A stretch of DNA of 64,000 nt from a bacterium (lineage in GTDB: Archaea > Nanobdellota > Nanobdellia > Pacearchaeales > GW2011-AR1): the NCBI GenBank assembly GCA_036787775.1, contig DAIQOR010000001.1, positions 30,521-94,520 on the forward strand, read 5' to 3'. This document shows, in pieces, positions 1 to 21,475 of the stretch (positions are counted from its first letter, which is position 1; the number at the start of each line of letters is the position of its first letter). Under the pieces are notes generated by a model. That model did no database searches. It was not told the origin of the DNA and saw only the letters and a program-made list of their open reading frames with translations. The translations under genes were made by a program, and so were the position numbers.

Positions 1-25
1 TAAAATATCTTTTTTCTAAATTTAT

Positions 26-1180
26 ATGAAAATAGCCCACATAAATATGTTTTATCTTCCGACTTTTGGAGGGGTTGAAAAAGTGATGCAAGAGCTTGCA
101 GAACGTCAAGTAAAAGAGGGGCACGAAGTTCATGTCTATTGTTGTGATTCAGATAAATATAAAAGAATTGAGAAAAAAGAAGAAACAATAAACGGGGTGA
201 AAATACACCGGTTGCCCTACTGGATGAGGCTATCTTTAAACACATTTGTTTGGCCCTCTCTTTTATGGAGAGTAAAAGAAAAATTTGACATTTTACACAC
301 GCATGTGTCAGGCCACGATTATGTTTTATTTGCAGGAATCTTAGCAAAATTACAAAGTGCCAAACATGTTCACACAACGCATTGCCCCTGGACAGATTCA
401 TCATTTCGTCCAAAAATTTTAAGGCCTTTCATTTTTTTGAATGATTTATTTTTTAATAAATTGTCATTTAAATTAACAGATAAAATTTTTTCAATTACAC
501 CTTGGGAAGTTCCAATTTTAAAAAAATATTGCGAAGAAGAAAAAATAAAAGTTATTCCGAATGGCATGGATGAAATTCTTTTTAAAAAAATAAAAAATAA
601 TAATTTTAGAAAAAGAAACAAAATTACAGAAAAATATTTAGTTTTATTTTTTGGAAGATTAAATCCCACAAAAGGTCCAGAAAAGTTAGTACAGGTAGCA
701 ATTAATATTTCTAAAAAAAGAAAGGACATAGCTTTTGTGTGGGTCGGTCCAGATGAAGGCAAAGCAGAAGAAGTAAAAAGTTTAATTAAATCTCATAAAA
801 ATATGAAATATCTTGGGCCAATTCTGGGAAAGGAAAACATAGCCGAGATGTATCAATCCGCAAATGTTTATGTTCTTCCGAGTTACAGGGAAGGGTTACC
901 TTTAACATTATTCGAAGCGATGGCCTCTGGGCTCCCAATAGTTGCTTCTCCAGTAAATGGAATTCCTTATGAAATGAAAGAACCAGATAATGGATTTTTT
1001 GCTGAATACGGAAATCTTAAAGAACTCGAAAAAAATATTTTAAAAATTTTAGATAACCCCCAATTAGCAAAAAAAATATCCACAAAAAACATCCAAAAAT
1101 CTAAGCAATATTCTTGGGATTTAATTTCAAAAAATTACTTAAATGAATATAAAAACTTAAAAACGAAATTAAAGAGGTAA
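26..1180 (+). CDS. Glycosyltransferase family 4 (GT-B, retaining)
   Basis: C-terminal GT4 signature EGLPLTLFEAMASGLPIVAS (E-x7-E motif), 384 aa; first gene of glycosylation locus. Confidence 0.75.
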   Translation: MKIAHINMFYLPTFGGVEKVMQELAERQVKEGHEVHVYCCDSDKYKRIEKKEETINGVKIHRLPYWMRLSLNTFVWPSLLWRVKEKFDILHTHVSGHDYVLFAGILAKLQSAKHVHTTHCPWTDSSFRPKILRPFIFLNDLFFNKLSFKLTDKIFSITPWEVPILKKYCEEEKIKVIPNGMDEILFKKIKNNNFRKRNKITEKYLVLFFGRLNPTKGPEKLVQVAINISKKRKDIAFVWVGPDEGKAEEVKSLIKSHKNMKYLGPILGKENIAEMYQSANVYVLPSYREGLPLTLFEAMASGLPIVASPVNGIPYEMKEPDNGFFAEYGNLKELEKNILKILDNPQLAKKISTKNIQKSKQYSWDLISKNYLNEYKNLKTKLKR

Positions 1181-1184
1181 CTCT

Positions 1185-2726
1185 ATGAAAATAACGCTAA
1201 TTTCTACTTCCACTTTTCCCTCAGACCAAGGAATAAGAACAATCTCTGCAGTTTTGAAAAGAGAAAGTCATGAAGTAAAAATAATCTTCATGACTTTAGG
1301 CGAAGACTATTCCAGAAACTATTACGAAAAAGAATTATTACAACTTGAGAGATTATGCACGGGGAGCGATTTAATTGGGATAAATGCTTTTGCTTCGACA
1401 TCCGAAAGGGCAAAAAAAATAATAAAATTTCTAAAAAGCAAAATTCCAATTCCAATTATTTATGGAGGAGTACATCCAACACTTTTTCCAGAGAAATGCA
1501 TCGAGTTTGCAGATATGGTCTGCGTAGGAGAAGGGGAGGAAGCAATTATAGAATTAGTTAATGCTCTTGAAAAAGGAAAATCCATAAGTGAAATAAAAAA
1601 TATTTGGTCCAAAGAAAAAAGGGGGAAAATAATAACAAATACAGTTAGGAATTTATTGGATGAAATTGACAAATTACCTCTTCCAGATTATGATTTAGAA
1701 GATCATTATATCCTAAAAAATCAATCAATAAGGAAATTTAAAGAATCAGATTTAGTTGGACAAGTTTTATTTTTAACCGGAAGAGGTTGTCCTTATGGAT
1801 GCGATTATTGTAGCAATAGTTGTTTCAATGAACTTTACAAAGGAAAAAGAAAAAAAATACTCAGATTACATTCACCAAAATATATTATCGAAGGAATTTT
1901 ATATTTCAAAAAAAAGTTCAAGACATTAGGGTATTTTGATATTCGGGATGATACTTTTTCCATGAGACCCTTAGAAAACATAAAAGAATTTTGTAAACTT
2001 TACAAAGAAAGGGTAAACATGAGATTCAAATGTTTAGGAGACCCACACACTATCGACGACGAAAAAATAAAATTATTAGTAGATACAGGATGTACAGATA
2101 TAATCATTGGAATTCAAGGAAGTGAAAAAACAAACAAAGAAATTTATCATAGGAATCAAACAGATAGCGATGTTTTAAGGTCGGCAAAAATTTTACACAA
2201 ATATAAAGATAAGCTTGCAGTGATGTATGATATTATTGCATGTAACCCCTATGATAAGCCAGAATACATTTTAGATTTAATTGATTTAGTAAGAAAAATT
2301 CCCAAACCTTATTTTTTATCCGTCAATAATTTGGTTTTTTTCCCCGGTTCAGCTTTGTATAATCGTGCAAAAAGAGATGGATTGATAAAAACAGAAAAAG
2401 ATGCAGCATACCAATTAAATTATTGGGATAGAGCAAAGCACATAAAATTAAAAGGTAATAATGTTTATCTAAATTTAATTTTGAATTTAATGAGAGGAGC
2501 TGCTAAAGAAAATAGAATTGGTTTTTTACCTAATTTTTTGATGGATTGGGCATTGAAACCAGAAAGGGTTAAGTATCATCTTAAGCACCCAGCATTTTCA
2601 TATTTAGTTCTTTCAATTATTGAAATATATGATAATTTAAGAGAAAGAATATTAAAACCAATTTTTAGAGCTTTACCATTAAGTTTCAAAATATGGCATG
2701 ATAAAGTTAGATACCATTTCAAATAA
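1185..2726 (+). CDS. Cobalamin(B12)-binding domain radical SAM protein
   Basis: N-terminal B12-binding-like Rossmann segment followed by radical SAM CxxxCxxC (GCPYGCDYCSNS); 513 aa. Confidence 0.7.
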   Translation: MKITLISTSTFPSDQGIRTISAVLKRESHEVKIIFMTLGEDYSRNYYEKELLQLERLCTGSDLIGINAFASTSERAKKIIKFLKSKIPIPIIYGGVHPTLFPEKCIEFADMVCVGEGEEAIIELVNALEKGKSISEIKNIWSKEKRGKIITNTVRNLLDEIDKLPLPDYDLEDHYILKNQSIRKFKESDLVGQVLFLTGRGCPYGCDYCSNSCFNELYKGKRKKILRLHSPKYIIEGILYFKKKFKTLGYFDIRDDTFSMRPLENIKEFCKLYKERVNMRFKCLGDPHTIDDEKIKLLVDTGCTDIIIGIQGSEKTNKEIYHRNQTDSDVLRSAKILHKYKDKLAVMYDIIACNPYDKPEYILDLIDLVRKIPKPYFLSVNNLVFFPGSALYNRAKRDGLIKTEKDAAYQLNYWDRAKHIKLKGNNVYLNLILNLMRGAAKENRIGFLPNFLMDWALKPERVKYHLKHPAFSYLVLSIIEIYDNLRERILKPIFRALPLSFKIWHDKVRYHFK

Positions 2727-3417
2727 TTCTTTCAAAATATTCAGTCACATCCTCAACACCTGCCCAATGAAACCCTGCCTGCCTCAATTTACAAGCTAAA
2801 CAAAATCCACAATGTTTTTCCTTTCCAACATAACAACTAAAAGTTTTTTTAAAATCAACACCTAATTTTTTACCTATCAAAATAATATCTTCTTTATCTT
2901 TTTTTATCAGCGGAGCTTTTATTTCAAAATTCCCCGAACAACCAATCTTCGCAAGGCGATTTATTTCTCGAACAAATTCTTTTGTTGTGTCTGGATAACT
3001 TTCATCACCTTCGCATTTGAATCCCACAAAAATATCACAGTTTTCCTTATTTTTCACAAATCTCGATTCCGCAAGTGCAAGAGCATAAGTCAAAAAAATC
3101 GTGTTCCGACAAGGCACATAATATTTTTCCGATTCCTCTTTTGTGTCCTTCAAATCTTTTTTACTAAGTTTTTTTATTTCACCTTCTTTATTAATTAATG
3201 AACCCGAGATTTCTCCCAACCAATCCAATTTTATCTCTTCAAATTCAGCCCCAAGATTTTCAGCACAACTTTTTGAACATTTTCTCTCTGAATCCAAGGA
3301 TTTTTGTCCATAATTAAAAAAAAGCACCAAAAGCTCATAACCCGCGTTTTTCGCGAAATAAGCGGTTGTAACGCTATCAATTCCTCCCGAGCACAGAATT
3401 ATTGCCTTCTTCTTCAT
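2719..3417 (-). CDS. queC: 7-cyano-7-deazaguanine synthase QueC (PP-loop ATPase)
   Basis: N-terminal PP-loop ILCSGGIDSVTTAYF and C-terminal Zn-site C-x7-C-x2-C-x2-C (SCYVGKEKHCGFCLAC). Confidence 0.7.
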   Translation of the reverse strand: MKKKAIILCSGGIDSVTTAYFAKNAGYELLVLFFNYGQKSLDSERKCSKSCAENLGAEFEEIKLDWLGEISGSLINKEGEIKKLSKKDLKDTKEESEKYYVPCRNTIFLTYALALAESRFVKNKENCDIFVGFKCEGDESYPDTTKEFVREINRLAKIGCSGNFEIKAPLIKKDKEDIILIGKKLGVDFKKTFSCYVGKEKHCGFCLACKLRQAGFHWAGVEDVTEYFERII

Positions 3418-3466
3418 AGTATTTCATCTCGGCAAACTTTATAAGTTTTAATTATTCTCCCTCTCT

Positions 3467-3661
3467 ATGAAAAAGAAAGCAAGTGAACTAACAAAAGGTG
3501 ATAAAATAAATTTAGCGAATAAGTCTTTTGTAATAAAAGAGTTCGAACTTTCTGAAATCGGAAAACACGGCAAGCGAAAATGTCGTATTGAAGCAGAATC
3601 CGAACAAGGCGAAAAGATAACAATTATCCGTCCGGAAGACTATCCAGTAGAGACCCTATGA
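3467..3661 (+). CDS. eIF-5A-like mini-protein (N-terminal SH3-like domain only; hypusine-loop-like GKHGK)
   Basis: 64 aa; TKGDKINL...SEIGKHGKRKCRIEAE closely parallels the aIF5A in this window (SKTGKHGHAKCRIEAM); stop TGA overlaps start of downstream GT2 (ATGA). Confidence 0.5.
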   Translation: MKKKASELTKGDKINLANKSFVIKEFELSEIGKHGKRKCRIEAESEQGEKITIIRPEDYPVETL

Positions 3662-4563
3662 TTAATATTATAATCACTTCCTACAACGAACCCAAAGCAA
3701 CCCTTCGGGCGGTAAAAACATTTTTAGACCAAAAAATTAAAGAAGATTTCAAAATAATTGTGGTAGACCCTTTCCAAGAAACAGAAGATTTTCTTAAAAA
3801 AAATATTAAAGATAAACGAGTAAACTTTTTTTTAGATCCGGGAGAGGGAAAAAGTTACGCACTAAATTTGTTATTCCAAGAAAATTTTTCTGAAAATAAA
3901 AACGATTTATTTATTCTAACTGATGGAGATGTTTACGTCTCAGAAAATTCCTTAAATGAAATAATAAAAGCATTCAAGGCTAAAGAAGTCGGATGTGTTG
4001 CAGGAAAACCCACAACTCTAGACTCAAAAAAAACAAAATATGGTTTCTGGTCTCACTTCGCGTTTGAAGGAATCCATCAAGCAAGAAAAAAATTATCCGA
4101 AAATAAAAAATTCTTTGAATGCTCGGGATATTTATTTGCCATAAGAAATTCAGTCCTATTTGACTTTCCTTTGGAATCTTCCGAAGATTCAATAATCCCT
4201 TATTTATTTTGGGAAAAAGGTTACAAAATAAAATATGTTCCAGAAGCAGAAGTTTATGTGAAAAATCCAGACAATTGGAAAGATTGGTTAAATCAAAAAG
4301 TAAGGAACATTAAAGGTCACGAAAATTTAAACAAAATCGCTCCCAACATGCCACGAACTAAATCTCTATTTAACGAAATAAAACATGGATGGAATTTTTT
4401 ATTTTTTTATCCAAAGAACATCCAAGAATTATTCTGGACAATTCAATTATACTTCGCAAGGTTATACCTTTATTTCAAAGCCTTCAAAGAATTAAGATTA
4501 AACAAAAAATATTCCGATGGTTGGAGAGAAACCGAAATAAATTCCACAAAACCTTTAGATTAA
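3658..4563 (+). CDS. Glycosyltransferase family 2 (GT-A)
   Basis: IIITSYNEP N-terminus, DxD-like TDGDVYV, 301 aa. Confidence 0.7.
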   Translation: MINIIITSYNEPKATLRAVKTFLDQKIKEDFKIIVVDPFQETEDFLKKNIKDKRVNFFLDPGEGKSYALNLLFQENFSENKNDLFILTDGDVYVSENSLNEIIKAFKAKEVGCVAGKPTTLDSKKTKYGFWSHFAFEGIHQARKKLSENKKFFECSGYLFAIRNSVLFDFPLESSEDSIIPYLFWEKGYKIKYVPEAEVYVKNPDNWKDWLNQKVRNIKGHENLNKIAPNMPRTKSLFNEIKHGWNFLFFYPKNIQELFWTIQLYFARLYLYFKAFKELRLNKKYSDGWRETEINSTKPLD

Positions 4564-4995: not shown

Positions 4996-6357
4996 ATGAA
5001 GCTTGTAATAATTAAATTAGGCGCATTAGGAGATGTAGTCCGAACGCTCCCTTTAGCAAAAGCGCTAAAACAAAAATATCCCGAGGCAGAATTAACCTGG
5101 ATAACAAATCCAAATGCAATCACAATTTTGGAAAATAATCCCCATATAGATAAAATTTATTCTTCAAATGAAGAAATTTCAGAAACATTTGATAAATTAT
5201 ATAATTTTGATATTGATGATGAAGCAACAAATTTATCATCCAATATTGAATCAAAAGAAAAGTTCGGATTTTACAATTCAGACGGATTTGTTTCAGCTTT
5301 TAATTTAGGTGCAGAATATTACCTAAACACACTTTTTGATGATGAACTAAAAAAGGAAAATAAAAAAACTTATCAAGAGATGATGTTTATGGTTGCCGAA
5401 ATTCCTTATAATCAAGAACACGAGACAATTTATTTGACCAAGGAAGAAATAAAATATGGAAAAAAATTTATTCAAGAAAATAAACTTTTTGAAAAGAAAA
5501 TAATCGGAATAAATATTGGAGCTTCCTCAAGGTGGCCATCAAAAAAATTACATGAAGAAAATTTAAAAGAATTAATAAAAAAATTATCTAAACACGAAAA
5601 TCACATAATTCTTTTAGGAGGTCCAAACGAAGTTGAATATCTTGAAACAATTCATAAAGAATTTCAAGAGTTTCCAAATATAATCAAAAATAATCCTTCA
5701 AATTCTCTAAAAGAATTTACCTCAATAATCAATATCTGCGACGAATTAATTTGTGGAGATACTTTAGCACTACATCTTTCAATCGCGCTAAAAAAACCAA
5801 CAATTGGATTATTTTTCTGTACATCTCATTCCGAAGTTGAAGATTATAATCTACTTAAAAAAATAATTTCTCCAAAATTTGATGAATTTTTTCCAGAGAA
5901 GATGGATCAATATGATGAAGAGTTAGTAAAAAGTATTTCCTGCGAGATGATTTTAAATTCATTAAATAAACCTGTTAAAGTAGCAAATGCCATGATAAAA
6001 AATGGAGACAAATTTTTAGTAATCAAAAGAAAAGATGAAGAAATTCATGCAGGGAAATGGATGTTTCCTGGAGGAGTTTTAGAAGATAATGAAAATTTTG
6101 AAGAAGCATTAAAAAGAGAAATAAAAGAAGAAGTTGGTTTAGAAATAAATCAAATAATAAAAGAAATATCAAATTATAAATACCTTCGACCTGACGGAAA
6201 AATTACCCTTGGAAAAAGTTATTTAGTTAATACAGAAGATTTTAATGTTGAAACTAATGGAGAAGTCGAAGATTTTAAATGGGTGACTTTAGAAGAATTC
6301 GAAAAATTAGATTCAATAGAAGGTTTGGCGGAAGAATTATTAGATACTTTTGAATAA
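4996..6357 (+). CDS. GT9 (heptosyltransferase-like) glycosyltransferase fused to C-terminal Nudix hydrolase domain
   Basis: Start moved to internal ATG (MKLVIIKLGALGDVVRTLP = GT9 N-terminal signature); C-terminal Nudix box GGVLEDNENFEEALKREIKEEVGLE (GX5EX7REUXEEXGU). ORF-track start 4852 overlaps the convergent gene. Confidence 0.65.
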   Translation: MKLVIIKLGALGDVVRTLPLAKALKQKYPEAELTWITNPNAITILENNPHIDKIYSSNEEISETFDKLYNFDIDDEATNLSSNIESKEKFGFYNSDGFVSAFNLGAEYYLNTLFDDELKKENKKTYQEMMFMVAEIPYNQEHETIYLTKEEIKYGKKFIQENKLFEKKIIGINIGASSRWPSKKLHEENLKELIKKLSKHENHIILLGGPNEVEYLETIHKEFQEFPNIIKNNPSNSLKEFTSIINICDELICGDTLALHLSIALKKPTIGLFFCTSHSEVEDYNLLKKIISPKFDEFFPEKMDQYDEELVKSISCEMILNSLNKPVKVANAMIKNGDKFLVIKRKDEEIHAGKWMFPGGVLEDNENFEEALKREIKEEVGLEINQIIKEISNYKYLRPDGKITLGKSYLVNTEDFNVETNGEVEDFKWVTLEEFEKLDSIEGLAEELLDTFE

Positions 6358-6391
6358 AAACAAATAAAAACGCTTTTTGGCTAAATTTATT

Positions 6392-7924
6392 ATGGACGAA
6401 ACTCAGAAAGAATTAGAAAATAGAAAAAAGAAAATTCTAAACAAAATTATTCCCTTCATGAAGGAACCACTAAATCTTGCTTTAGTTACAGTTTTATTAT
6501 TCGCATTTGTCTTAAGATTATATTATTTCATAAAAGTAGGAAACCAGCCTCTTTGGTGGGATGAACTTTGTTATGGAAGTTTAGCAAAAAATTTTATAAC
6601 ACACACGTGGGATAGCACAACCTTAATCTTAGGAGAAACGGCAATAAGGCCAGTCCTTTTTCCCTTACTTTGGTCAATTCTTTTAAGAGTCGGAATTCCA
6701 GAAGGAGGAGTAAGATTTTTTTTAGAGTTTATTCCTTCAATTCTTTCTGTATTTTTTGTTTATCTAATTGGCAAAGAAACATTTAATAAAAGGGTAGGGA
6801 TTATATCCGCATTTATTTTTTCAGTTTTATGGATACACTTATTTTATACAGTTAGATTATTAACACATGCCCCCGCACTAGTATTTTTATTTTCCAGCAT
6901 ATATTTGTTTATGAAAGCTACGGAAACAAAATTTAATTTCAATCTTTTCACCATATCATTAATCCTTCTTTCTCTCAGCACATTAATGAGATATCCAAAG
7001 GGAATAATTTTCTTTGTGTATTTATTTATGTTGGTAATAGATAAAAAATTACTATTAAAAAATTTCAAATTTTGGAAAGCGGGCATTTTAGGAATCTCTC
7101 CAATGATCGTGTTTTTTATTTATAATTTTGTAAAATACCAAAATATATTTCCTGCCCTTTTAGGAGGAGGATATCTGGATAAAGGGGGATCCCCCCTTAT
7201 TAAACCGATTGCGTTTAATCTTTTAAATTTTATTCCAGTTTATCTTAAAACAACTTTCTTTATATTTTTCTTAATTGGTTTATTGTTAATTTTATTTGAA
7301 TTAATCACAGGATACAATTTAATACCAAAGATAAAAAAACTGAAAAATAGTCTAATTTTAATTTTAATTTTAATTTTAATTTATTCATTTTTCATATTTT
7401 ATATGCGAGCTGCTGAAGATAGATGGTTATTTCCAACAATTTTACCATTAGCAATTATAACTTCTTTAGGAATTGATTTTGTCTATAATCAAATAAAAAA
7501 ATATAACAAACAAATAGCAGTCTTATGCGTGATTCTTATTTTAGGATTTGGAGCTTATTCGCAATTAACTTTTGCAGATTCGCTGATAAAAGGAAAGCAA
7601 GAAAGTTACCTTCAGATGAGACAGGCATTCGAATGGATAGGTTCTAACACCCCTGAAGATTCAATCATAGCCGGTTTAGGGATAGAACCTTATACTGTTT
7701 ACTATGCAAAAAGAGATTATATCAATCTCCCCCAGAATTATTCGGAAGTTGGAGTGGCTTTGGAGGCAGATTATCTTGTAGCACATCTTTTTGCGGGAAA
7801 TCCTCCAAAATATTTAAGTGAATATCTTTCTGAAAATCAAGATATTTGGCAGCCCTTAAATGCCTGGTTTTTAGATGAAGCAAAAACTCAACCAGCAGTT
7901 ATTTTATATAAAAAGGTTCAATAG
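6392..7924 (+). CDS. GT-C fold membrane glycosyltransferase (ArnT/PMT-like, GT39/GT83-like)
   Basis: About 12 predicted TM helices, first-loop WWDE acidic motif; ORF track starts at TTG 6377, first ATG at 6392. Confidence 0.55.
   Translation: MDETQKELENRKKKILNKIIPFMKEPLNLALVTVLLFAFVLRLYYFIKVGNQPLWWDELCYGSLAKNFITHTWDSTTLILGETAIRPVLFPLLWSILLRVGIPEGGVRFFLEFIPSILSVFFVYLIGKETFNKRVGIISAFIFSVLWIHLFYTVRLLTHAPALVFLFSSIYLFMKATETKFNFNLFTISLILLSLSTLMRYPKGIIFFVYLFMLVIDKKLLLKNFKFWKAGILGISPMIVFFIYNFVKYQNIFPALLGGGYLDKGGSPLIKPIAFNLLNFIPVYLKTTFFIFFLIGLLLILFELITGYNLIPKIKKLKNSLILILILILIYSFFIFYMRAAEDRWLFPTILPLAIITSLGIDFVYNQIKKYNKQIAVLCVILILGFGAYSQLTFADSLIKGKQESYLQMRQAFEWIGSNTPEDSIIAGLGIEPYTVYYAKRDYINLPQNYSEVGVALEADYLVAHLFAGNPPKYLSEYLSENQDIWQPLNAWFLDEAKTQPAVILYKKVQ
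7354..7383 (+). repeat. Tandem hexanucleotide (aatttt)x4-5 inside GT-C gene, encoding (LI)n
   Basis: aattttaattttaattttaattttaattta read directly; in-frame. Confidence 0.8.
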
Positions 7925-7983
7925 GAAAAATATATTCTTTAGAGAACATAAATCTTTATTAATGAAGCTCATATTTTTCAAAT

Positions 7984-9036: not shown

Positions 9037-9037
9037 A

Positions 9038-10171: not shown

Positions 10172-10173
10172 AA

Positions 10174-12581: not shown

Positions 12582-13291
12582 TTTTTAATAAAACCGAGCC
12601 GGTGTTTGAAAATTAACCACAACATTCCTAATCCTATTACAAATGTTTTTTTGAAATCTCCCGTAGCTGAAGAAACTCCGACTCTTCTAAGATATCTAAC
12701 AGGAATTTCAATAAATTTAATATTATTTCGGATAACTTGCAACATCATATCTGGATTAAATTCCATCCCAGTAATTGTAAATTTATTTTTAATTTTCTCA
12801 TAAGCTTTCCGATTAATTAATCTATAAGTGCATCCAACATCTGAAAGAAAATTAGTTCCAAACATAAATTCAACCATTTTTGCAACAGCAAAATTTCCCC
12901 ACTTCAAAAACCACCCCATGTTTGCGCCACGACCAATCATAATCGAAGTTGTCCGAGTTCCAAAAACCACGTCAAAATTATCTGAATAAGCCAAAAATTT
13001 CACCACATCATTTGGGTCAAAAGTTCCATCTGGTTCGGACATAATTATCAAATCTCCAGAAGATTCGTACAACGCTCTACGATACCCCCAACCGAACCCT
13101 TGTTTTTTTTCCAAAAAATATTTCGCATTCGTTTTCAAAATCTCTTCTTTCGTGCCTTCACGAGCGTTGTTATCCACAGCAATCACTTCGTCAACATAAC
13201 CTGTTTTAAACAACCCATCAATAAATTCCCTTATGGAATCTTTTTCATTATACGTCGAAAAAACAACCGAAACCTTTTTTCCTTTCCACAT
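12578..13291 (-). CDS. GT2 polyprenyl-phosphate glycosyltransferase (Dpm1/AglD/AglJ-like)
   Basis: VSVVFSTYNEKDSI, VIAVDNNAREGT, 237 aa soluble GT-A typical of dolichol-phosphate sugar synthases. Confidence 0.65.
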   Translation of the reverse strand: MWKGKKVSVVFSTYNEKDSIREFIDGLFKTGYVDEVIAVDNNAREGTKEEILKTNAKYFLEKKQGFGWGYRRALYESSGDLIIMSEPDGTFDPNDVVKFLAYSDNFDVVFGTRTTSIMIGRGANMGWFLKWGNFAVAKMVEFMFGTNFLSDVGCTYRLINRKAYEKIKNKFTITGMEFNPDMMLQVIRNNIKFIEIPVRYLRRVGVSSATGDFKKTFVIGLGMLWLIFKHRLGFIKK

Positions 13292-13313: not shown

Positions 13314-14999
13314 TTAAATAGTTAATTGTTCAAGGTTATAGATATAAAATTCCCCAATTTTCACCTCTGGTTCAAATCCCTCAACAGGATAATATTTTAC
13401 AACATATTTAGATTTTTCTAAAGCTTCCTCTTTTGGAATTGGTTCAACTATTCCAGAATAAATTCCGTTTGGCCAAAAAAATGAATCATTCATTTCAGAG
13501 TTTTCAAAACTTTTTTTAAAATATTCAAATAGATATTTTGAAGAAAAATTTAATAAAGGTTTATCATGATCATTAATATAAAATTTTCCCCCAAAATAAT
13601 ATCCAATTGCTTTGGGGCAAATAACAACATCCTCTTCTTGAGTGTGTTCTTGAAGATAAATTCCAACTTCTTTTATATGTGATTCATACATCACATTTTT
13701 TGTAATGAAATAACCAGAATAACTTAAACTCAATAAAACTAAAATTAAAATTAAAGTAGTCCTTCTTTTTCGTTTATCAATAAATAAAACTCCCATAAAA
13801 GGGATTGAAGCAAAAATATTCATTAAAAAATCTGGAAAATTTGTGGCTTTTATTAATCCTGCACTATTGTAAATTGTTGGTTGGGGATTTAATATTAATA
13901 ATAAAATAATTGAGATTAGAAAACAAATAATTACTATCACAATTTCTTTTTTATCCATGTTTATTTTTTTCAAATTTGAATAAATAAACATCCCAATTAA
14001 AATGAATATTGCAGGCAAAATTGTTGCAAAATAACGAGGATATCCAAAAGCTGGACGAGGAACAAGAAAAAAGAAAATTAAAATAACTAAAGAATAAATT
14101 AATAAAATATTAACGAGGTTACTTTTTCTTTTCAAAAAATAAAAGAAGCTCCAACACATCAAAATTACTACCGGAAAGGTCAAAAGCCGAATAAACTGGG
14201 CAATATTCAAAAAGAAACTTCCAAGATAAATTCCAAGGGTTGAAAATTGAGAACCACCAATATTCGCATTATGAATTAAAAATGAAAAGAAATTTCCAGG
14301 CTCAATAAAAATACTATAAATTCCCCAAATAATCACAAACGAAAAAAAAGAAATAAGCCCAATTTTAAAATAATCATAAAAATCCTTCTTAAACTCCTTA
14401 TTAAAAAAATAATATATTCCAATTCCCACATAAATTAAAAAAGCCATTGGATATCTATTTCCAATACTAAAAAGTAAGAAAAAATAAGATAAATAAAAAT
14501 GAAATTTTTTGTGTTCCTGATGATATCTGAGAATTGAGTAAATAAATCCGAAGGTAAAAAACATAGAAAGAATATCGATATCAATAATCACCGAGGAGGA
14601 AAAAACATAATAATTAATCATAAAAAAAGCACAAGAGATTAATCCAATCCACTTTCCTTTTTCTTCACCAATTATTTTATAACAAAATAAATAAATTAAA
14701 AAGGCAGTTAAAATAACAAAAATAAAATTTAGACTTCGAAGGATAATTTCACTCTCGCCAAATCTCATAAGTAAGGATAAAGTCATAATGTAAGTCGGAG
14801 GATGCCACAAAGCAAGTTCTAAAGGCTGTTGTTCTGAATGATAAAACAAAGGATGGCCTGTTTCTATTAATGCAATTGCCGGATTAACAAAATCTGCTTC
14901 CTCCCCCGTAATCTCATTATTTAGAGAAACCACTCGAAAACCAATGCCCAGTAAAATTAAAACTAAACAAAAAATAATTAACAACTTTTTAATATTCAT
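13314..14999 (-). CDS. GT-C fold membrane glycosyltransferase (ArnT/PMT-like) with C-terminal extracytoplasmic domain
   Basis: Many TM helices then about 130-aa soluble tail; 561 aa; adjacent to Dpm1-like GT2 (donor/consumer pairing). Confidence 0.5.
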   Translation of the reverse strand: MNIKKLLIIFCLVLILLGIGFRVVSLNNEITGEEADFVNPAIALIETGHPLFYHSEQQPLELALWHPPTYIMTLSLLMRFGESEIILRSLNFIFVILTAFLIYLFCYKIIGEEKGKWIGLISCAFFMINYYVFSSSVIIDIDILSMFFTFGFIYSILRYHQEHKKFHFYLSYFFLLFSIGNRYPMAFLIYVGIGIYYFFNKEFKKDFYDYFKIGLISFFSFVIIWGIYSIFIEPGNFFSFLIHNANIGGSQFSTLGIYLGSFFLNIAQFIRLLTFPVVILMCWSFFYFLKRKSNLVNILLIYSLVILIFFFLVPRPAFGYPRYFATILPAIFILIGMFIYSNLKKINMDKKEIVIVIICFLISIILLLILNPQPTIYNSAGLIKATNFPDFLMNIFASIPFMGVLFIDKRKRRTTLILILVLLSLSYSGYFITKNVMYESHIKEVGIYLQEHTQEEDVVICPKAIGYYFGGKFYINDHDKPLLNFSSKYLFEYFKKSFENSEMNDSFFWPNGIYSGIVEPIPKEEALEKSKYVVKYYPVEGFEPEVKIGEFYIYNLEQLTI

Positions 15000-15526
15000 T
15001 TTAAAATTTCAATTTCAAACAAAGCTTCTGAACAAGGAAGAATCCAACAAAAAAATCGCTCATAGATTTCCGGATTTAAATTTATTAAAGGATTCATAAA
15101 AATGTTTAAAAATGGAAATGCTAATCTCGTAAAATTTAATTTTTTACTTATTTCTTTAATAAATATTAATTCCTTTGGCTTTTCATAATTTTTGTTGAAT
15201 TTTTGATAATAATCAAAAGTAAAGTATGAAAAGAAAGTTTTGTGAGTAGCGTCTCGATAAGTCACGCCACAACTAAAATGGGGGACACGAATTATCCACT
15301 TAGCATTATCTTTAGAAATTCTCTTCATTTCAAGCAATGTTCTTTCAAAGTCATTTACATGTTCTAAAAAATGCGACGTATAAATCTCATCAAATTCATT
15401 TGCTTTAAATGGCCACGGAAATTTATTTGTATCAAAAACAACATCAACTCCTTTTTGGTCAACGAAATCCAAATTTACATAGCCTTCTTTTATATCTTCC
15501 CCACAGCCCAAATTAAGTTTTTTCAT
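14996..15526 (-). CDS. Class I SAM-dependent methyltransferase (Methyltransf_11-like)
   Basis: LNLGCGEDIKEGYVNLD motif I, 176 aa. Confidence 0.65.
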   Translation of the reverse strand: MKKLNLGCGEDIKEGYVNLDFVDQKGVDVVFDTNKFPWPFKANEFDEIYTSHFLEHVNDFERTLLEMKRISKDNAKWIIRVPHFSCGVTYRDATHKTFFSYFTFDYYQKFNKNYEKPKELIFIKEISKKLNFTRLAFPFLNIFMNPLINLNPEIYERFFCWILPCSEALFEIEILK

Positions 15527-16311
15527 TTTTTATTTACCAATTTATCGCCAATTATTAAAATGAATTTTACAGGTTTTAAAAGTTCTGCGAAAGGAGAATA
15601 TATTAGTCTCAATCTCACTGCCCCCAAAAGCATCTGAAGAGGAGTTCTTGAAGAAAGAATCTTGGACCCTTTATCATCATCCTCCCATTTTGTCGGAATC
15701 TCTTTAATTTTAAATTTATTATTTTTGCAAACAAAAAGCAAATTTATGTCAAACGCCCATTCGGTCAAAACTAATAACGGATGAATTTTTTCTATAACTT
15801 CTCTTTTGAACATTTTTGCCCCACATTGAGTATCCTTTTGTTTAACCAGCCCCATGCTCCGAACAGCAAAATTAAACACCCTGCTCCGAACATACTTTCC
15901 TGTAGAACGAATAACTTCCGAGCCATTTATCCATCTCGAGGCAATAGTCCCGTCGACCCCTTCAATGTGAATTATTAAGTCATAAAAAGCTTCTGGAGCG
16001 GTCGACATATCCGTGTCGACAAACCCAATTAAATCATTATCTCGCTTCAGAGCGTCCTTAAAACCCTCTGTAATTGCAAATCCCTTACCTCCTTGCTCAA
16101 ATTCTAAAAATCTTATCTCTTTGTACGTCTTTTTATATTCTCTAACAACATCCAAGGTCTTATCTGTGCAAGCATTCAAAACAACGAGAATCTCAAAATC
16201 AGTAATTTCTTTAATTTTCTTCTTCTCTTGAAAAAATTCAGAATAAGCTTCCAAAGTTCTACCTATCCGAAACTCTTCGTTATATGCTGGCATAATAATA
16301 CTAATTTTCAT
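15523..16311 (-). CDS. GT2 polyprenyl-phosphate glycosyltransferase (Dpm1-like)
   Basis: ISIIMPAYNEE, VVLNACTDKT, FVDTDMST DxD-like; 262 aa. Confidence 0.65.
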   Translation of the reverse strand: MKISIIMPAYNEEFRIGRTLEAYSEFFQEKKKIKEITDFEILVVLNACTDKTLDVVREYKKTYKEIRFLEFEQGGKGFAITEGFKDALKRDNDLIGFVDTDMSTAPEAFYDLIIHIEGVDGTIASRWINGSEVIRSTGKYVRSRVFNFAVRSMGLVKQKDTQCGAKMFKREVIEKIHPLLVLTEWAFDINLLFVCKNNKFKIKEIPTKWEDDDKGSKILSSRTPLQMLLGAVRLRLIYSPFAELLKPVKFILIIGDKLVNKK

Positions 16312-17542: not shown

Positions 17543-17543
17543 T

Positions 17544-18548
17544 TTAACCAGCGTAAATTCCCCCGAAAAGCATTAATCCGACGAGAATAATAATTATTTG
17601 GAACAAATTAACTATATAAACAACTTCTTTTTCATAAACTTTTCCACTCTTTTTAATTTTCTTCAAAACATAAATTGCAATATGTTCTAATCCATAAAAC
17701 TTTTCGTAAGGAACATCCAAAGTTCCGTCTTCTTGAACTTTCCCAAAACTCTGTTTCCTAAGTTTACCTCTTAATTTTAAACCAGTCTCAAGAATATACG
17801 GAATAAAAAAGAACACTGCTATTTTTTCCACATTTCCTAAAATAGCCATGCAAGCAATCAAAGCACCGACGGAATATGTCAAAACATCTCCAGGGAAAAT
17901 TTTTGCAGGGTATTTGTTAAAAACATAAAAAGCCAACAAACAAAAAATCATCACAAGCCCAATTAATGCCAACCAACTATTTCCAGCAATATAATTAACA
18001 AAAGATAGAGCCCCCAATAAAATTATTCCTTGACTTGTTTCAATTCCATTATAGCCTGCAATAAAATTAAATGTTGAAGATGCTCCAACAACTCCAAGAG
18101 GAATTAAAATCAAAGGATACCATAAACCAAACTCGATTCCTATCATACTCGATTCCCCCGCATTTATTACCATCAAGGGTATTGCTGCGAAAATCAAAAG
18201 TAAAATTCTAAATCTTGCTGAAAGCCCACCCTTAACCCATCCAAAAATGTCGTCGACAAATCCAATAAATCCCGCAAGAAAAACAGTCATAAGCAAAGCA
18301 AATATTTGAGTCGTATAAATATCTGTTTTCAAAATAAATGTTTTCAAAGCAATGTAAAGTAATACTCCAAATAAAAATCCAAATAAAACAATTATTCCTC
18401 CAGAACCAGAAACATTTTTCGGATGCCCTTTTTTATTCATATCTTCCCAAATTAATCCAATGTTTTTTGCCTTCTTAATCCACAAAGGTGTAAAAAATAA
18501 AGTAACAAGAAAACTAAATATCAATGAGATTATAAGTAATGATTCCAT
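17544..18548 (-). CDS. UDP-GlcNAc:dolichyl-phosphate GlcNAc-1-phosphate transferase (MraY/WecA/AglH family)
   Basis: Polytopic; conserved FIGFVDDIFG aspartate motif of MraY/WecA family; start set to ATG at 18546-18548 directly abutting aglB stop. Confidence 0.7.
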   Translation of the reverse strand: MESLLIISLIFSFLVTLFFTPLWIKKAKNIGLIWEDMNKKGHPKNVSGSGGIIVLFGFLFGVLLYIALKTFILKTDIYTTQIFALLMTVFLAGFIGFVDDIFGWVKGGLSARFRILLLIFAAIPLMVINAGESSMIGIEFGLWYPLILIPLGVVGASSTFNFIAGYNGIETSQGIILLGALSFVNYIAGNSWLALIGLVMIFCLLAFYVFNKYPAKIFPGDVLTYSVGALIACMAILGNVEKIAVFFFIPYILETGLKLRGKLRKQSFGKVQEDGTLDVPYEKFYGLEHIAIYVLKKIKKSGKVYEKEVVYIVNLFQIIIILVGLMLFGGIYAG

Positions 18549-18549
18549 T

Positions 18550-21306
18550 TTAGAATTTCCAAGGAACATATTTAGATGAGTCTCTATCAAGATATTTCTC
18601 TTTTGTTTTTTCATCCACGGAAAATCCTTCAGGATATTCAATTTCCCAAATTTTTATTGGGCCCCTAATTCCTTGGTAATAAACAAATTCTGGAAGATTC
18701 ATTCCTTGGCTCCTCAAACTAGAAATAATTAAATCTGATTCAACATGAGCAATTTTAAAATTTGGAAAATTATTGAAAGGGTCATTCAAAATATATTTCT
18801 GAACAAGCATACCCCTCATTAATCTTGGGCTTAAGAAAAGAGCCATTCCAATAGGATTTGTTTGCACATTTTGCCCATTAGAACTTATTGAAGGAAAAAT
18901 AAAAATTGTTGCATTTATGCCGGACTTGAAATCATAAAAACCATCATTTGTTGAAACATACCTAACATTCACTTTGTGTTGAACTCCGTTATAAACCATT
19001 ATGACATATGGTTGAAGAGCAGATAACTTTCCATTTTCGTCTTTTTTAGAAGGAACAATTGCTGCTCCGATGCCAGTATTTCCTGAAGGAAGAAAAATTT
19101 CCTTTCCATTTTCTTCAATAATTAAATCTTCATCCAAAGCAATTCCTCCAGAATACACATAAGTAGTTTCTTCTTTTGTTTCATAAGTTTGTTTTTCATC
19201 CAATCCCATTACTCCTATCCAAGAAACTCTATCAAAATCCTCATCAGAACCGATGCTAGAAAAAGCCCCATATTTTCCAATATCTGAAGAGTCAATTAAA
19301 AAATAATTTGCATCATGAGTATACAAAAATTCCAAAGCATCTTTTTGATTGTCTCCTGTCAGAACTAATCTACCCATCCAATAATTCCAGAAAGAAATAG
19401 CATTCCCTCCATCCAAAACTGTTGCCCTTTTACCAATACTTTGCACCCAATATCCATAATCCCACCAGTGCCCAAAAACAGATTCTTGAGGCGTCTCAGT
19501 TCTAACCCAATCCATCGCCTTTTGCCATTGCTGAGTATAACCCGAAGGAATCATATTATATGATTGAGCCTTTATTTGTCCGTAATATGTCCAGAAAATA
19601 AAAATACTCAATAAAATAATTGTAATTGCAAGGATTCCCAAAATTAATCTCTTTGTCTCATTCTTTTCCTTGAAAAAACTTTCCACACTTTCATAATTCA
19701 AATAAGCCAAAAAAATCGGAGCAATAGGTCCCAAAACCATAATCAATCGAACTGCACCTCTTGCACTAAAAATAGAAATTAATAAAACAACAAGTAAAAA
19801 AATATACTCAAATCTTATTTTTTTCAATAATTTTTTATCTTCTTTATTATATCTCAAATAAATCTTTGTTGCCAAATAGAAAAATAATAAAACTGCTCCA
19901 TAATAAACAAATTTACTTATAAAATTCTCTCCATTAAAAATACTTGAACCAGAATATCTTGAGAAAATCATTCCCAACAACACCAACGCAAAAGAACCAG
20001 TTAAAATCCAAGCATCTTTTTTCTTAAGTCTTTTCAACATTTTTTTAAATAGAGCAATTGAACCAATAACAAATGCCCAGAACATTAAAGCGATTCCTCC
20101 AACATGCGGACCAAAACTTGCTTCCCATTCTATAAAGTAAGGTTGCCTATTTTCTGCAACAGTTGTGTTCCATCTTCCAGTAACTGGTTTAAATATTTGC
20201 TGATGGATTGCCTTTGCTTTATCCATAACAAAAGAAGTGTCTACAAAGACTGTTGCAAAAATAATCACTAAAAGAATGGTGAAAATTAAAGAGATAATTT
20301 GTTTTGGAAGTTTTATCTTTTTTAATGTTTCATTTTTTGAAATTTTTGTATTCCATATTAAAAAGTGAATTACCATTATGATTAAAACCAGGAATGCAAT
20401 TCCCATATCAAGCGAAGTTATCATATTTTTTAATTTCATATATGGTTGAATGATAAGAGTTAGAATTGTTGAAATAAGAATCCATATAATATAGACTGTG
20501 TATTGATTTAAGTCAACCTTATTCAAGATGAATGCAATTAAGACGGATATCGCTAAAGGAATATAAATAAACATTACTCCTCCCCAAATCGCTCCCATAA
20601 GGGATGTTGAAATTCCAGTCAACACCCCAAAAAGAACCGCGAATTTAATCTTTTCACTTTTCCATGCTTTTAAAAATAAATAAAATGTTAAGAACATAAA
20701 GAAAAATGCCGCAGATTCTTTTTCAGGAATTCCAGCAATTGTTCGAGATAAAAATACGGGAGTAACAATCATAAAAAAAGTCGAGATTAAAGCAATAATA
20801 TTCGCCTTAGTTTTGCTCTTAGGACTTTTTCTAACAAAAACTTCTCTAACAAAAAGGAAGAAAGAAATTATTGTCAAAGCAAACATAATCACAGGAAACA
20901 ATGCAGCAGAAAATTCAATATTATTTGCAGAATAAAAAAGATTTGTAATTGAGTAAGTCCAAACAATCATTTTTGGGAGAAGCATGGTTTCTTTTGCTGT
21001 TTCAAAACCAAGAGGGGTATTTCTCATCATGTCTATTTTAGCTACAGAACCATTGTCAATAATTTCCCCTGCATATCGTGTAAATAACCATGGATCTAAA
21101 TCTGGTCCGAGTGTCCAATTATTTGTTGTAAAATCCCACAAACCGGGAAATCCGCCGTGATCCTGCATGGGCAAAGTACGAATATAAATTCCCAAAACTA
21201 AAGCAACAATCAACAATCCAATAACCCAAACTTGCTTCTTCTTTAGAAAATCTAAAACCTTCGCTTTTCTTTTTTCCAAATCCTCGAATGTATTTTCTGT
21301 TTCCAT
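18550..21306 (-). CDS. aglB: Archaeal oligosaccharyltransferase AglB (STT3)
   Basis: 918 aa, N-terminal multi-TM domain, diagnostic WWDYGYW motif (HWWDYGYWVQ), C-terminal periplasmic domain. Confidence 0.9.
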   Translation of the reverse strand: METENTFEDLEKRKAKVLDFLKKKQVWVIGLLIVALVLGIYIRTLPMQDHGGFPGLWDFTTNNWTLGPDLDPWLFTRYAGEIIDNGSVAKIDMMRNTPLGFETAKETMLLPKMIVWTYSITNLFYSANNIEFSAALFPVIMFALTIISFFLFVREVFVRKSPKSKTKANIIALISTFFMIVTPVFLSRTIAGIPEKESAAFFFMFLTFYLFLKAWKSEKIKFAVLFGVLTGISTSLMGAIWGGVMFIYIPLAISVLIAFILNKVDLNQYTVYIIWILISTILTLIIQPYMKLKNMITSLDMGIAFLVLIIMVIHFLIWNTKISKNETLKKIKLPKQIISLIFTILLVIIFATVFVDTSFVMDKAKAIHQQIFKPVTGRWNTTVAENRQPYFIEWEASFGPHVGGIALMFWAFVIGSIALFKKMLKRLKKKDAWILTGSFALVLLGMIFSRYSGSSIFNGENFISKFVYYGAVLLFFYLATKIYLRYNKEDKKLLKKIRFEYIFLLVVLLISIFSARGAVRLIMVLGPIAPIFLAYLNYESVESFFKEKNETKRLILGILAITIILLSIFIFWTYYGQIKAQSYNMIPSGYTQQWQKAMDWVRTETPQESVFGHWWDYGYWVQSIGKRATVLDGGNAISFWNYWMGRLVLTGDNQKDALEFLYTHDANYFLIDSSDIGKYGAFSSIGSDEDFDRVSWIGVMGLDEKQTYETKEETTYVYSGGIALDEDLIIEENGKEIFLPSGNTGIGAAIVPSKKDENGKLSALQPYVIMVYNGVQHKVNVRYVSTNDGFYDFKSGINATIFIFPSISSNGQNVQTNPIGMALFLSPRLMRGMLVQKYILNDPFNNFPNFKIAHVESDLIISSLRSQGMNLPEFVYYQGIRGPIKIWEIEYPEGFSVDEKTKEKYLDRDSSKYVPWKF

Positions 21307-21438
21307 TTAATTTAACAATTCATCAGCGTTAAGATCTTTCATAACCATTTCCTTTCCACAATAAGGGCAAGGCTTGTCTCTTCTCTCGACTTCAGAATCA
21401 AATTTATAATTGCAATTTTTACAAACAAATTTCACCAT
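21307..21438 (-). CDS. Small zinc-ribbon protein (43 aa, CxxC...CxxC), not in ORF track
   Basis: Manual translation: MVKFVCKNCNYKFDSEVERRDKPCPYCGKEMVMKDLNADELLN; stop directly abuts aglB start codon (same strand, upstream). Confidence 0.5.
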   Translation of the reverse strand: MVKFVCKNCNYKFDSEVERRDKPCPYCGKEMVMKDLNADELLN

Positions 21439-21475
21439 AGTTTATGTAAATAATATCGATATATAAAGATTTCTT

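Follow-up and report, generated by a model that had tools for sequence, protein, structure and literature searches.

The window analysed here is a 64,000-nt stretch of contig DAIQOR010000001.1, and its opening part carries a densely packed island of glycan genes anchored by aglB, the gene for an oligosaccharyltransferase. The host is a groundwater Candidatus Pacearchaeota archaeon of the DPANN group; proteins identical to three of the island products (rSAM2, GT9-Nudix and rSAM1 in the list below) are recorded as Candidatus Pacearchaeota. The island occupies positions 26-21438 and comprises 20 genes abutting each other, counted as 18 open reading frames (ORFs) of at least 80 aa plus a 64-aa ORF (3467-3661) and a 43-aa ORF (21307-21438). 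Coding sequence fills 99% of 26-21306, with intergenic gaps of -9 to +59 nt and four 4-nt start/stop overlaps of the ATGA type, in agreement with the packed 20-gene, 21-kb locus with overlapping stops and starts described in a first-pass annotation of the same DNA. With moderate confidence, we interpret the locus as an aglB-anchored cell-surface glycosylation island in which an N-glycan would be built by a single pathway, with decoration outside the cell and tailoring by radical S-adenosylmethionine (SAM) enzymes.

All coordinates are positions in the window, and L-numbers (L001, L013 and so on) designate loci in other genomes. Families were called by Pfam scans of the window ORFs at gathering cut-offs and finer names by NCBIfam equivalog models; the scans of the remainder of the window omitted a minus-strand run of short co-directional ORFs at 26-40 kb, presumably a ribosomal-protein operon. 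Sixteen genes within the 21 kb around aglB belong to glycan families, including glycosyltransferases (GTs) and short-chain dehydrogenases/reductases (SDRs). The other four of the 20 are non-glycan genes: QueC, a nucleoside-deoxyribosyltransferase-like (NDT-like) gene, the 64-aa aIF5A-like ORF and the 43-aa zinc ribbon. The genes are as follows.

26-1180 (+): GT4a, GT4 glycosyltransferase of the GT-B fold, 384 aa; Glycos_transf_1 115.7 bits, Glyco_transf_4 86 bits
1185-2726 (+): rSAM1, radical SAM protein with B12-binding domain, 513 aa; B12-binding 51.2 bits, Radical_SAM 52.2 bits, CPYGCDYC
2719-3417 (-): QueC (7-cyano-7-deazaguanine synthase); TIGR00364 158.8 bits against a cut-off of 150.3
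3467-3661 (+): 64-aa paralogue of the aIF5A N-terminal domain; gene call in three assemblies, IF5A-like_N 19.7 bits, sub-threshold
3658-4563 (+): GT2a, GT2 of the Glyco_tranf_2_3 type, 301 aa; Glycos_transf_2 59.2 bits, Glyco_tranf_2_3 55.2 bits
4555-4962 (-): NDT-like, nucleoside 2-deoxyribosyltransferase-like, 135 aa; Nuc_deoxyrib_tr 61.2 bits
4996-6357 (+): GT9-Nudix fusion, 453 aa; Glyco_transf_9 (PF01075) 67.1 bits against 22, NUDIX (PF00293) 68.7 bits
6392-7924 (+): GT-C1, polytopic PMT_2 glycosyltransferase, 510 aa; PMT_2 45.3 bits against 26.1, 13 hydrophobic segments
7984-9036 (+): SDR1, CDP-tyvelose (CDP-hexose) 2-epimerase homologue, 350 aa; Epimerase 158.4 bits, PDB 9rl0 and 1orr
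9038-10171 (+): GT4b, GT4 glycosyltransferase, 377 aa; Glycos_transf_1 103.3 bits
10174-11184 (+): SDR2, extended SDR, GalE/4,6-dehydratase-like, 336 aa; Epimerase 135 bits, PDB 4zrm 123.6 bits
11190-12581 (-): rSAM2, radical SAM protein with B12-binding domain, 463 aa; Radical_SAM 96.3 bits, B12-binding 70.3 bits, CVYGCIYC
12578-13291 (-): GT2b, candidate polyprenyl-phosphate sugar synthase, Dpm1/AglJ-like, 237 aa; AglJ 79.4 bits, sub-threshold
13314-14999 (-): GT-C2, polytopic PMT_2 glycosyltransferase, 561 aa; PMT_2 36.6 bits against 26.1, 11 hydrophobic segments
14996-15526 (-): MT176, small class I SAM-dependent methyltransferase, 176 aa; Methyltransf_11 28 bits against 21.2 (weak), N-terminal LNLGCG
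15523-16311 (-): GT2c, Dpm1/GtrB/PgfS-like GT2, 262 aa; Glycos_transf_2 69.3 bits
16316-17542 (-): Wzx/AglR-like flippase candidate of the MOP family, 408 aa; Polysacc_synt_3 59.8 and Polysacc_synt 51.5 bits, 12 hydrophobic segments
17544-18548 (-): polyprenyl-phosphate N-acetylhexosamine (HexNAc)-1-P transferase of the AglH/Alg7/WecA family, 334 aa from Met32; PF00953 (Glycos_transf_4) 103.7 bits against 27, 11 hydrophobic segments
18550-21306 (-): AglB oligosaccharyltransferase, 918 aa; STT3 50.8 bits against 24.5, catalytic motifs
21307-21438 (-): zinc-ribbon ORF (CxxC...CxxC), 43 aa; read from the sequence, abuts the aglB start codon

As read from the spacing, nine genes form a minus-strand string from 21438 to 11190 with gaps of -4 to +22 nt, in the order zinc ribbon, AglB, AglH-like, Wzx, GT2c, MT176, GT-C2, GT2b and rSAM2. 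Convergent with it runs a plus-strand string of five genes from 4996 to 11184 (GT9-Nudix, GT-C1, SDR1, GT4b, SDR2). Two short plus-strand units, GT4a-rSAM1 and 64-aa ORF-GT2a, complete the layout, with QueC and the NDT-like gene interleaved among the plus-strand units on the opposite strand.

ENA ERZ4902915, ENA ERZ909576 (a groundwater assembly) and JGI 3300002727 all contain these genes in identical order, with proteins that are 100% identical. The locus thus does not split on reassembly, as the first-pass annotation had allowed that it might, and identical order across three independent assemblies rules out an assembly artefact. A mobile island was likewise ruled out, with a locus GC of 0.29-0.32 compared to 0.28-0.36 elsewhere and no integrase or tRNA at the borders. 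The island is flanked by SecY, ribosomal-protein and FtsZ genes, its base composition is uniform, and it is part of the core chromosome. Rfam and tRNA scans detected just two tRNAs, both far from the locus, and no structured RNA within 1-21.4 kb.

Families and motifs of the island proteins

AglB carries WWDYG (residues 614-618), from which it had been recognized at first, together with DIGKYGAF (675; the DK motif), TVAE (382; the TIXE motif), D69-L-D71 and E195-K-E197. The protein aligns to yeast Stt3 over the EL2 region and WWDYG, and about 13 transmembrane segments are followed by a 300-aa C-terminal domain. AglB is an STT3-family oligosaccharyltransferase, predicted to transfer a lipid-linked glycan to Asn. 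Eight glycan-family genes are co-directional with aglB in one string with gaps of at most 22 nt. Since aglB is accompanied by an initiating transferase, GTs, a flippase candidate and tailoring genes, the locus is an aglB-anchored archaeal N-glycosylation (agl) cluster.

The profile searches placed the GTs in named families and none in unrelated ones. The two GT4s, two GT-C enzymes, GT9-Nudix fusion, two extended SDRs and two B12-domain radical SAM proteins listed by the first-pass annotation all score above the Pfam cut-offs, as does, but weakly, its SAM methyltransferase. The GlcNAc-1-P-type transferase holds at the family level through PF00953, and the flippase gene through Polysacc_synt_3 and the 12 hydrophobic segments of its product. 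The AglH-like protein starts at an internal Met (18548) and not at the longest-ORF start. It scores far below cut-off against the WecA, MraY and archaeal MraY equivalog models, and its FNFIAGYNGIE resembles what we take to be the Alg7/AglH motif, NxxAGxNGxE. A 57%-identical orthologue follows aglB in L012/L092.

Three GT2s are present, as annotated at first, but only GT2b and GT2c are Dpm1-like. GT2b gave sub-threshold NCBIfam matches to AglJ and a Dol-P-hexose transferase (79.4 and 48.7 bits), and its only solved relatives in a PDB search were Pyrococcus furiosus DPMS (5mlz) and ArnC (9hwj). For GT2c, DPMS 5mlz was the top PDB match (38.3 bits), followed by other GT2s and GtrB (5ekp), and PgfS was the top NCBIfam match. 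Both are therefore candidate polyprenyl-phosphate sugar synthases of the Dpm1/ArnC/GtrB type, an assignment of family-level membership only. GT2a is not Dpm1-like: the PDB search gave no solved relative at E≤1e-3, and its top NCBIfam matches are of the PgaC/NodC type. In relatives, its orthologues (42-69% identity) belong to the rSAM1 block, the GT9/GT-C block or both. GT-C1 and GT-C2 are PMT_2-family (ArnT/PMT-like) GT-C enzymes, judged by their sequences, whose first external loop, after transmembrane segment 1, bears an acidic motif (WWDE and EEAD, respectively). The proposal that Dpm1-like and GT-C pairs point to lipid-linked donors agrees with the position of GT2b and GT2c beside a PMT_2 GT-C, matching the AglD -> AglR -> AglS arrangement.

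In the plus-strand block, all NCBIfam equivalog matches of GT4a were sub-threshold, and a 73%-identical orthologue lies directly upstream of the rSAM1 orthologue in L100. SDR1 scored 335.9 bits (E 2.4e-99) against PDB 9rl0 and 320.2 bits against 1orr, both matches covering residues 1-339, with other SDR classes at or below 127 bits; it is a CDP-tyvelose/CDP-paratose 2-epimerase (TyvE) homologue, which points to a CDP-activated hexose. SDR2, with the UDP-glucose 4-epimerase 4zrm as its top PDB match, is best described as a generic GalE/4,6-dehydratase-like extended SDR.

The longest ORF of GT9-Nudix begins at 4852, but the conserved start is Met49 (4996), and the gene is called as 453 aa in other assemblies. 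The Nudix box (GX5EX7REUXEEXGU) is intact, with GVLEDNENFEEALKREIKEEVGL matching the consensus at every position. In the GT9 domain the N-terminal GD-containing motif LGALGDVVRTLP is conserved; the best solved relative, PDB 3tov, is itself a GT9, and the HepI/II/III equivalog models gave sub-threshold scores (72 bits against 185). At more than 50% identity across Nanoarchaeota, the GT9 domain is found fused to Nudix in about 50 clusters and as stand-alone proteins of about 330 aa in many more. Several relatives surround it with genes of a heptose theme. In L096/L097 (9443-11754), the genes that come after GT9-Nudix encode a HAD phosphatase, a PfkB kinase and CTP_transf_like, parts of a split HldE/GmhB ADP-heptose route, and one homologue combines CTP_transf_like, Nudix and GT9 in a single protein. 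In L100 (8582-12401), rSAM1 is followed by a SIS isomerase, a GHMP kinase and a HAD-NTP_transferase-SDR fusion, a set that presumably resembles a GDP-heptose route. Heptose has been reported in a Thermoplasma N-glycan (PMC11407970), so the idea of a heptose-type sugar has an archaeal precedent.

QueC is the sole locus protein above an NCBIfam equivalog cut-off. It and the NDT-like gene, which is probably involved in nucleoside metabolism, overlap their convergent neighbours by 8-9 nt. Their arrangement is kept at 54-68% identity in L013, L093 and L096, where the NDT-like gene is conserved divergent to GT9. The interleaving may reflect inherited synteny or a functional link, e.g. nucleotide handling with the Nudix domain. 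The 64-aa ORF overlaps the GT2a start by 4 nt and also precedes GT2a in L013, L093 and L096, i.e. in at least three other Pace-/Woesearchaeota lineages. Compared with the aIF5A of the window (57653-58102), it shows 41% identity over 39 residues (5-43) and retains the GKHG hypusine-loop motif, as a stand-alone paralogue of the N-terminal (KOW/SH3) domain.

The aglB transcription unit probably begins with the zinc-ribbon ORF, and L012/L092 carry a 45%-identical ORF at the corresponding position, between a SpoIIM-like gene and aglB. Upstream of the window ORF, at a distance of 21 nt, is a TATA-like CTTTATATAT, whose first base is 27 nt from the ATG.

Conservation of the island and of its radical SAM enzymes

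Comparison with other DPANN Pace-/Woesearchaeota, proposed at the outset as a synteny check, yielded collinear loci. L013, labelled Woesearchaeota, is collinear with 2.7-17.5 kb of the window at 34-84% identity, over QueC, the 64-aa ORF, GT2a, NDT-like, GT9-Nudix, GT-C1, SDR1, GT4b, SDR2, rSAM2, GT2b, GT-C2, MT176, GT2c and Wzx. L012/L092 (Pacearchaeota, 38-82% identity) run SpoIIM, zinc ribbon, AglB, AglH, Wzx, GT2, methyltransferase, GT-C, GT2, rSAM2. The island is thus a feature of the lineage and not a one-off. GT-C2 orthologues (52-53% identity) keep the same position in L012 and L013. For MT176, L013 has an orthologue of 69% identity, and L027 and L038 have homologues (46-47%) next to GT-C genes. 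The block QueC, 64-aa ORF, GT2a, NDT-like, GT9 (with or without Nudix) and GT-C was found in three further Pacearchaeota lineages. The GT-C1 orthologue follows GT9 in L013 and L093, and in L096 it comes after three interposed heptose-nucleotide-type genes.

rSAM1 and rSAM2, which share only 26% identity, both have the make-up of class B radical SAM enzymes, with PF02310 above the 32.1 cut-off, a PF04055 core and CxxxCxxC; with this B12-binding domain they may bind and use cobalamin. The closest solved sequences to rSAM2 are MgmA (PDB 9ccb, 98 bits) and AprD4 (87 bits), at 22-24% identity. Its AlphaFold (AF2) model (pLDDT 91.7) superposes over the full length on MgmA 9ccb with template modelling (TM) scores of 0.69/0.75 and on AprD4 6fd2 with 0.76/0.77, and TsrM, CysS, OxsB and TokK are the next-nearest folds. 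MgmA methylates a protein glutamine, while AprD4 is a sugar dehydratase that has a B12-type domain layout and binds no cobalamin (PMC12931638).

A profile scan of a genome collection for relatives of rSAM2 returned 80 loci. Orthologues with 63-74% identity occur in Pace-/Woesearchaeota, Nitrospiraceae, a Saccharibacteria-labelled bin, Desulfamplus, Marinamargulisbacteria and Fibrobacterota, the last on a 405-kb contig carrying MurA-type and (faint) LptD/OstA-type genes, and a Falkowbacteria orthologue shows 60-61% identity. In the window, rSAM2 overlaps GT2b by 4 nt, an arrangement indicating translational coupling, and a GT2b orthologue lies immediately upstream of the rSAM2 orthologues in L001/L002, L012/L092, L013, L004 and L090. 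A GT2 of about 237 aa also adjoins bacterial rSAM2 orthologues, with identities to GT2b of 74% (L011), 51% (L016) and 48% (L017). A polytopic protein of about 340-580 aa, either PMT_2 or unannotated, lies within a few kb of the orthologues from Nitrospiraceae, Falkowbacteria, the 'Saccharibacteria' bin and Fibrobacterota, and the bacterial orthologues often have an SDR and a class I methyltransferase at similar distance. Across the 80 loci, iterated profiles identified a GT2 in 53, a PMT_2-type GT-C in 33 and a class I methyltransferase in 27. Owing to the coupling to Dpm1-like GT2b, the co-occurrence of the two genes in several bacterial phyla as well as archaea, and the GT-C that is usually nearby, the substrate of rSAM2 is most likely a sugar, and one that is plausibly linked to polyprenyl phosphate. 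No STT3/PglB match was found within the 8-10 kb examined on each side of the bacterial rSAM2-GT2b(-GT-C) loci, so the module is not specific to N-glycosylation. It may instead be seen as a portable cassette that decorates whatever acceptor the host offers, and not N-glycans by definition.

rSAM1 is remarkably conserved, with over 120 clusters sharing 65-75% identity, nearly all of them from Pace-/Nanoarchaeota. A GT2a-like gene (300 aa) and a 529-aa PMT_2 gene come right after it in L098/L099, all contiguous, and L100 has the order GT4, rSAM1, heptose-nucleotide-type genes, GT2, GT-C and small methyltransferase. The island accordingly holds two trios of a GT2, a B12-domain radical SAM and a GT-C gene, rSAM1/GT2a/GT-C1 and rSAM2/GT2b/GT-C2. 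We tentatively propose, as an idea that is possible and by no means probable, that such a trio, often with a class I methyltransferase, is a four-component version of three-component extracytoplasmic glycosylation. The radical SAM enzyme would remodel a polyprenyl-phosphate sugar (by C-methylation, deoxygenation or ring rearrangement) and the GT-C would deliver it to a surface glycan; the rSAM2-GT2b version would have moved between DPANN and several bacterial phyla, and the rSAM1 version would be near-universal in the surface-glycan loci of Pace-/Nanoarchaeota. A literature search found no paper joining Pacearchaeota, glycosyltransferase and radical SAM, and none joining radical SAM, GT-C, polyprenyl and cobalamin.

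Two further settings of B12-domain radical SAM genes were observed. L027, L037, L038 and L081 (Woesearchaeota/Nanoarchaeia) each contain three to five homologues per approximately 20 kb together with GT2 and GT4 genes, and in most of them also GT-C and small methyltransferase genes, a striking investment for genome-reduced archaea. In L008/L009 (Elusimicrobia), a 54%-identical rSAM2 homologue stands beside two SDRs and a SPASM radical SAM gene, in mobile- or defence-like surroundings (Fic, Mrr-type restriction, NucS-like and recombinase genes) that lack GT2 and GT-C genes.

Radical SAM enzymes acting after a GT are also known from lipid metabolism: in the HpnI/HpnJ and Cds systems a GT places a hexose on a lipid, and the radical SAM enzyme then rearranges the lipid-bound sugar (PMC13459092). 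rSAM1, rSAM2 and the GT2s could by analogy remodel the head groups of membrane lipids (to a cyclitol-type or otherwise altered form), with a lipid-scavenging DPANN archaeon altering the lipids it acquires. The top NCBIfam matches are indeed lipid-related, namely HpnJ (TIGR03471) for rSAM2 and TIGR04072, 'lipid biosynthesis B12-binding/radical SAM', for rSAM1, but their scores (231.6 and 93.5 bits) are far under the cut-offs of 577.6 and 360. For rSAM2, identity as an HpnJ equivalog was rejected on this score, and no hopanoid genes were found among the window ORFs scanned. The conservation of rSAM1 would suit a housekeeping enzyme better than a variable glycan-tailoring one. Both radical SAM genes, on the other hand, are persistently flanked by GT-C, nucleotide-sugar SDR and GT4 genes typical of glycan assembly, GT2, GT4, GT-C and SDR neighbours being retained by their orthologues in other genomes, and rSAM2 is translationally coupled to the aglB string. 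We regard lipid remodelling as improbable, and tailoring of a glycan sugar as the better account of the two enzymes.

A more serious alternative concerns the reach of N-glycosylation within the island, all 21 kb of which had been ascribed to it at first. Only the minus-strand aglB string might make N-glycans, with the plus-strand units building another surface glycoconjugate (O-glycan, glycolipid/lipoglycan or polysaccharide) as neighbours in a glycan 'hot spot'. The locus is aglB-anchored as claimed, but the plus-strand block occurs without aglB within 7-8 kb in the relatives L093-L100, just as the bacterial loci with homologous modules lack a nearby STT3/PglB match. The minus and plus strings are moreover convergent and form separate transcription units, and the PMT_2 members characterised so far attach sugars to Ser/Thr, to lipid A or to other glycans, and not to Asn. 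Against this division, both blocks adjoin in at least two species (those of the window and L013), and the 21 kb hold one flippase candidate and one priming phosphosugar transferase, the plus block being without a priming or flipping enzyme of its own. GT-C enzymes of Haloferax, furthermore, can finish N-glycans (PMC3871713). We consider two separate glycans possible, though unlikely, and continue with a single N-glycan pathway drawing on both strands.

Proposed pathway and points against it

In the proposed pathway, the AglH-like enzyme would prime dolichyl phosphate on the membrane's cytoplasmic face, and the soluble GT4, GT2 and GT9 enzymes would lengthen the glycan from nucleotide sugars tailored by SDR1 and SDR2, the GT9 donor being of the ADP- or GDP-heptose type. 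Wzx would then flip the lipid-linked glycan, and AglB would move it onto Asn. In parallel, GT2b and GT2c would charge dolichyl phosphate with single sugars; once these had been flipped, the PMT_2-type GT-C enzymes would attach them extracellularly, in the manner of Haloferax AglD/AglR/AglS and bacterial ArnC/ArnT or GtrB/Gtr. In Haloferax, the AglD -> AglR -> AglS branch adds a sugar from a Dol-P-sugar extracytoplasmically and so finishes the N-glycan (PMC3871713). rSAM1 and rSAM2 would most likely tailor a sugar, plausibly while it is lipid-linked, by C-methylation or by radical dehydration or rearrangement, and MT176 may add an O- or N-methyl group. Of the reasoning that led to the rare or methylated sugars suggested at first, the linkage of the radical SAM genes to glycan genes is supported, since their orthologues keep such neighbours elsewhere, but these enzymes could carry out two or more kinds of reaction, of which methylation is one. 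What was observed directly is the gene families with their motifs, the tight packing and the synteny; we infer in which order the steps run, what the substrates are and that the plus-strand block contributes to the N-glycan.

Several points weigh against this pathway. The transcription units are inferred from spacing only. The NCBIfam equivalog models, all far below cut-off for locus proteins other than QueC, assign no sugar specificity. The nearest relatives of rSAM2 (MgmA, AprD4 and HpnJ, about equally close) span C-methylation, cobalamin-free sugar dehydration and ring contraction, among which sequence and predicted fold do not decide. The rSAM1 trio is interrupted in the window by QueC, the 64-aa ORF, the NDT-like gene and GT9-Nudix, and is further weakened as a 'lipid-linked sugar' unit as GT2a is not Dpm1-like. 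Neighbours of rSAM2 homologues in the 80 loci were counted with a crude transmembrane predictor and iterated profiles, which may drift or over-generalise. None of seven window proteins examined is a sequon-rich surface protein. Finally, no heptose-nucleotide gene, nucleotidyltransferase or dolichol-phosphate supply gene was found among the window ORFs scanned; related loci carry some of these, and the 'complete assembly line' of the first-pass annotation is not supported.

The scanned ORFs in the remainder of the window are archaeal housekeeping genes (SecY, prefoldin, L1, L10, L11, FtsZ, SepF, aIF5A, Spt5), along with genes resembling Tyw1 (a radical SAM), AMP phosphorylase and ribose-1,5-bisphosphate isomerase. 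The last of these encodes an IF-2B-family protein (22357-23205, +) whose top NCBIfam match, ribose-1,5-bisphosphate isomerase, is sub-threshold; the AMP-phosphorylase-like gene (41895-43370, +) shows Glycos_trans_3N, Glycos_transf_3 and PYNP_C, and the two products are two parts of the archaeal AMP-salvage route. Between SecY and the presumed ribosomal-protein operon, 26291-27721 (-) encodes a 476-aa secreted protein whose N-terminus is a signal-like hydrophobic segment; it belongs to no Pfam family and contains zero N-X-S/T sequons. Over 24000-40000 the GC skew is -0.26 to -0.37, and the AT skew is negative from about 26 kb. This region coincides with the short minus-strand ORFs downstream of SecY, and the skew is probably a strand and codon-usage effect and no separate feature.

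Significance and comparison with known systems

The literature searched yielded neither the structure of an N-glycan nor a pathway for one in any DPANN archaeon. These tiny episymbionts make contact with their hosts through the cell surface, and the locus offers a concrete and conserved parts list for it. It singles out a CDP-hexose 2-epimerase step, GT9-delivered heptose-type sugars without lipopolysaccharide (LPS), and radical SAM tailoring tied to Dol-P-sugar/GT-C transfer. If radical SAM enzymes do act on polyprenyl-phosphate sugars, this would be a new reaction class in bacterial and archaeal glycoconjugate assembly, and two large orphan branches of the B12-radical SAM superfamily would gain functions. 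Genome-reduced DPANN cells that invest in several enzymes with B12-binding domains may, in addition, need cobalamin from their surroundings.

Archaeal agl clusters are notoriously diverse (PMC11407970), and an aglB-anchored cluster is of an already-known kind. The B12-domain radical SAM genes, the GT9-Nudix fusion and the TyvE homologue lie outside the characterised agl pathway as described in PMC11407970 and PMC3871713. The Haloferax volcanii agl cluster (aglJ-aglM, HVO_1517-1531) shares with the island aglB together with GT2 and GT4 enzymes, a MOP-type flippase, a SAM methyltransferase (AglP in Haloferax) and sugar-nucleotide enzymes, and its AglD/AglR/AglS branch shares a Dol-P-sugar synthase and a polytopic transferase acting outside the cell (PMC3871713). 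In contrast to Haloferax, the island initiates with a PF00953 transferase of the AglH/Alg7 type, as in methanogens, and its proteins reach the cut-off of no Agl equivalog model. Its two GT-C enzymes, GT9-Nudix fusion, CDP-tyvelose-2-epimerase homologue and two B12-radical SAM genes have no counterpart among the Haloferax Agl components reviewed (PMC3871713).

The LPS heptosyltransferases of GT9 (WaaC/WaaF/WaaQ) share the GT9 domain and the GD-containing motif, and loci of the island's relatives adjoin ADP-heptose-type genes. The island GT9, however, is found in an archaeon without LPS, is fused to an intact Nudix hydrolase and scores sub-threshold against the equivalogs. The hopanoid cyclitol ether enzymes HpnI/HpnK/HpnJ and the calditol synthase Cds resemble the island in combining a glycosyltransferase with a radical SAM enzyme, HpnJ being the top named family for rSAM2. 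No hopanoid or glycerol dialkyl glycerol tetraether (GDGT) genes are present in the island, where the neighbours are GT-C, SDR and aglB. The sugar 1,2-diol dehydratase AprD4 and the B12-dependent C-methylases MgmA/QCMT are structurally closest to rSAM2. AprD4 acts on a sugar with a partner reductase, and rSAM2 orthologues often adjoin an SDR; yet AprD4 is cobalamin-free and MgmA acts on a protein glutamine (PMC12931638), and neither substrate fits the island context.

The GtrA/GtrB/Gtr, ArnC/ArnT, GacI/GacL and PgfS/PgfM systems share with the island a small GT2 that charges polyprenyl phosphate and a GT-C/PMT_2 transferase at the outer face. Unlike the Gtr systems, the island is without a GtrA-type flippase, Wzx being the only candidate, and compared to all four it inserts a B12-radical SAM gene, often with a class I methyltransferase, among the GT2 and GT-C genes.

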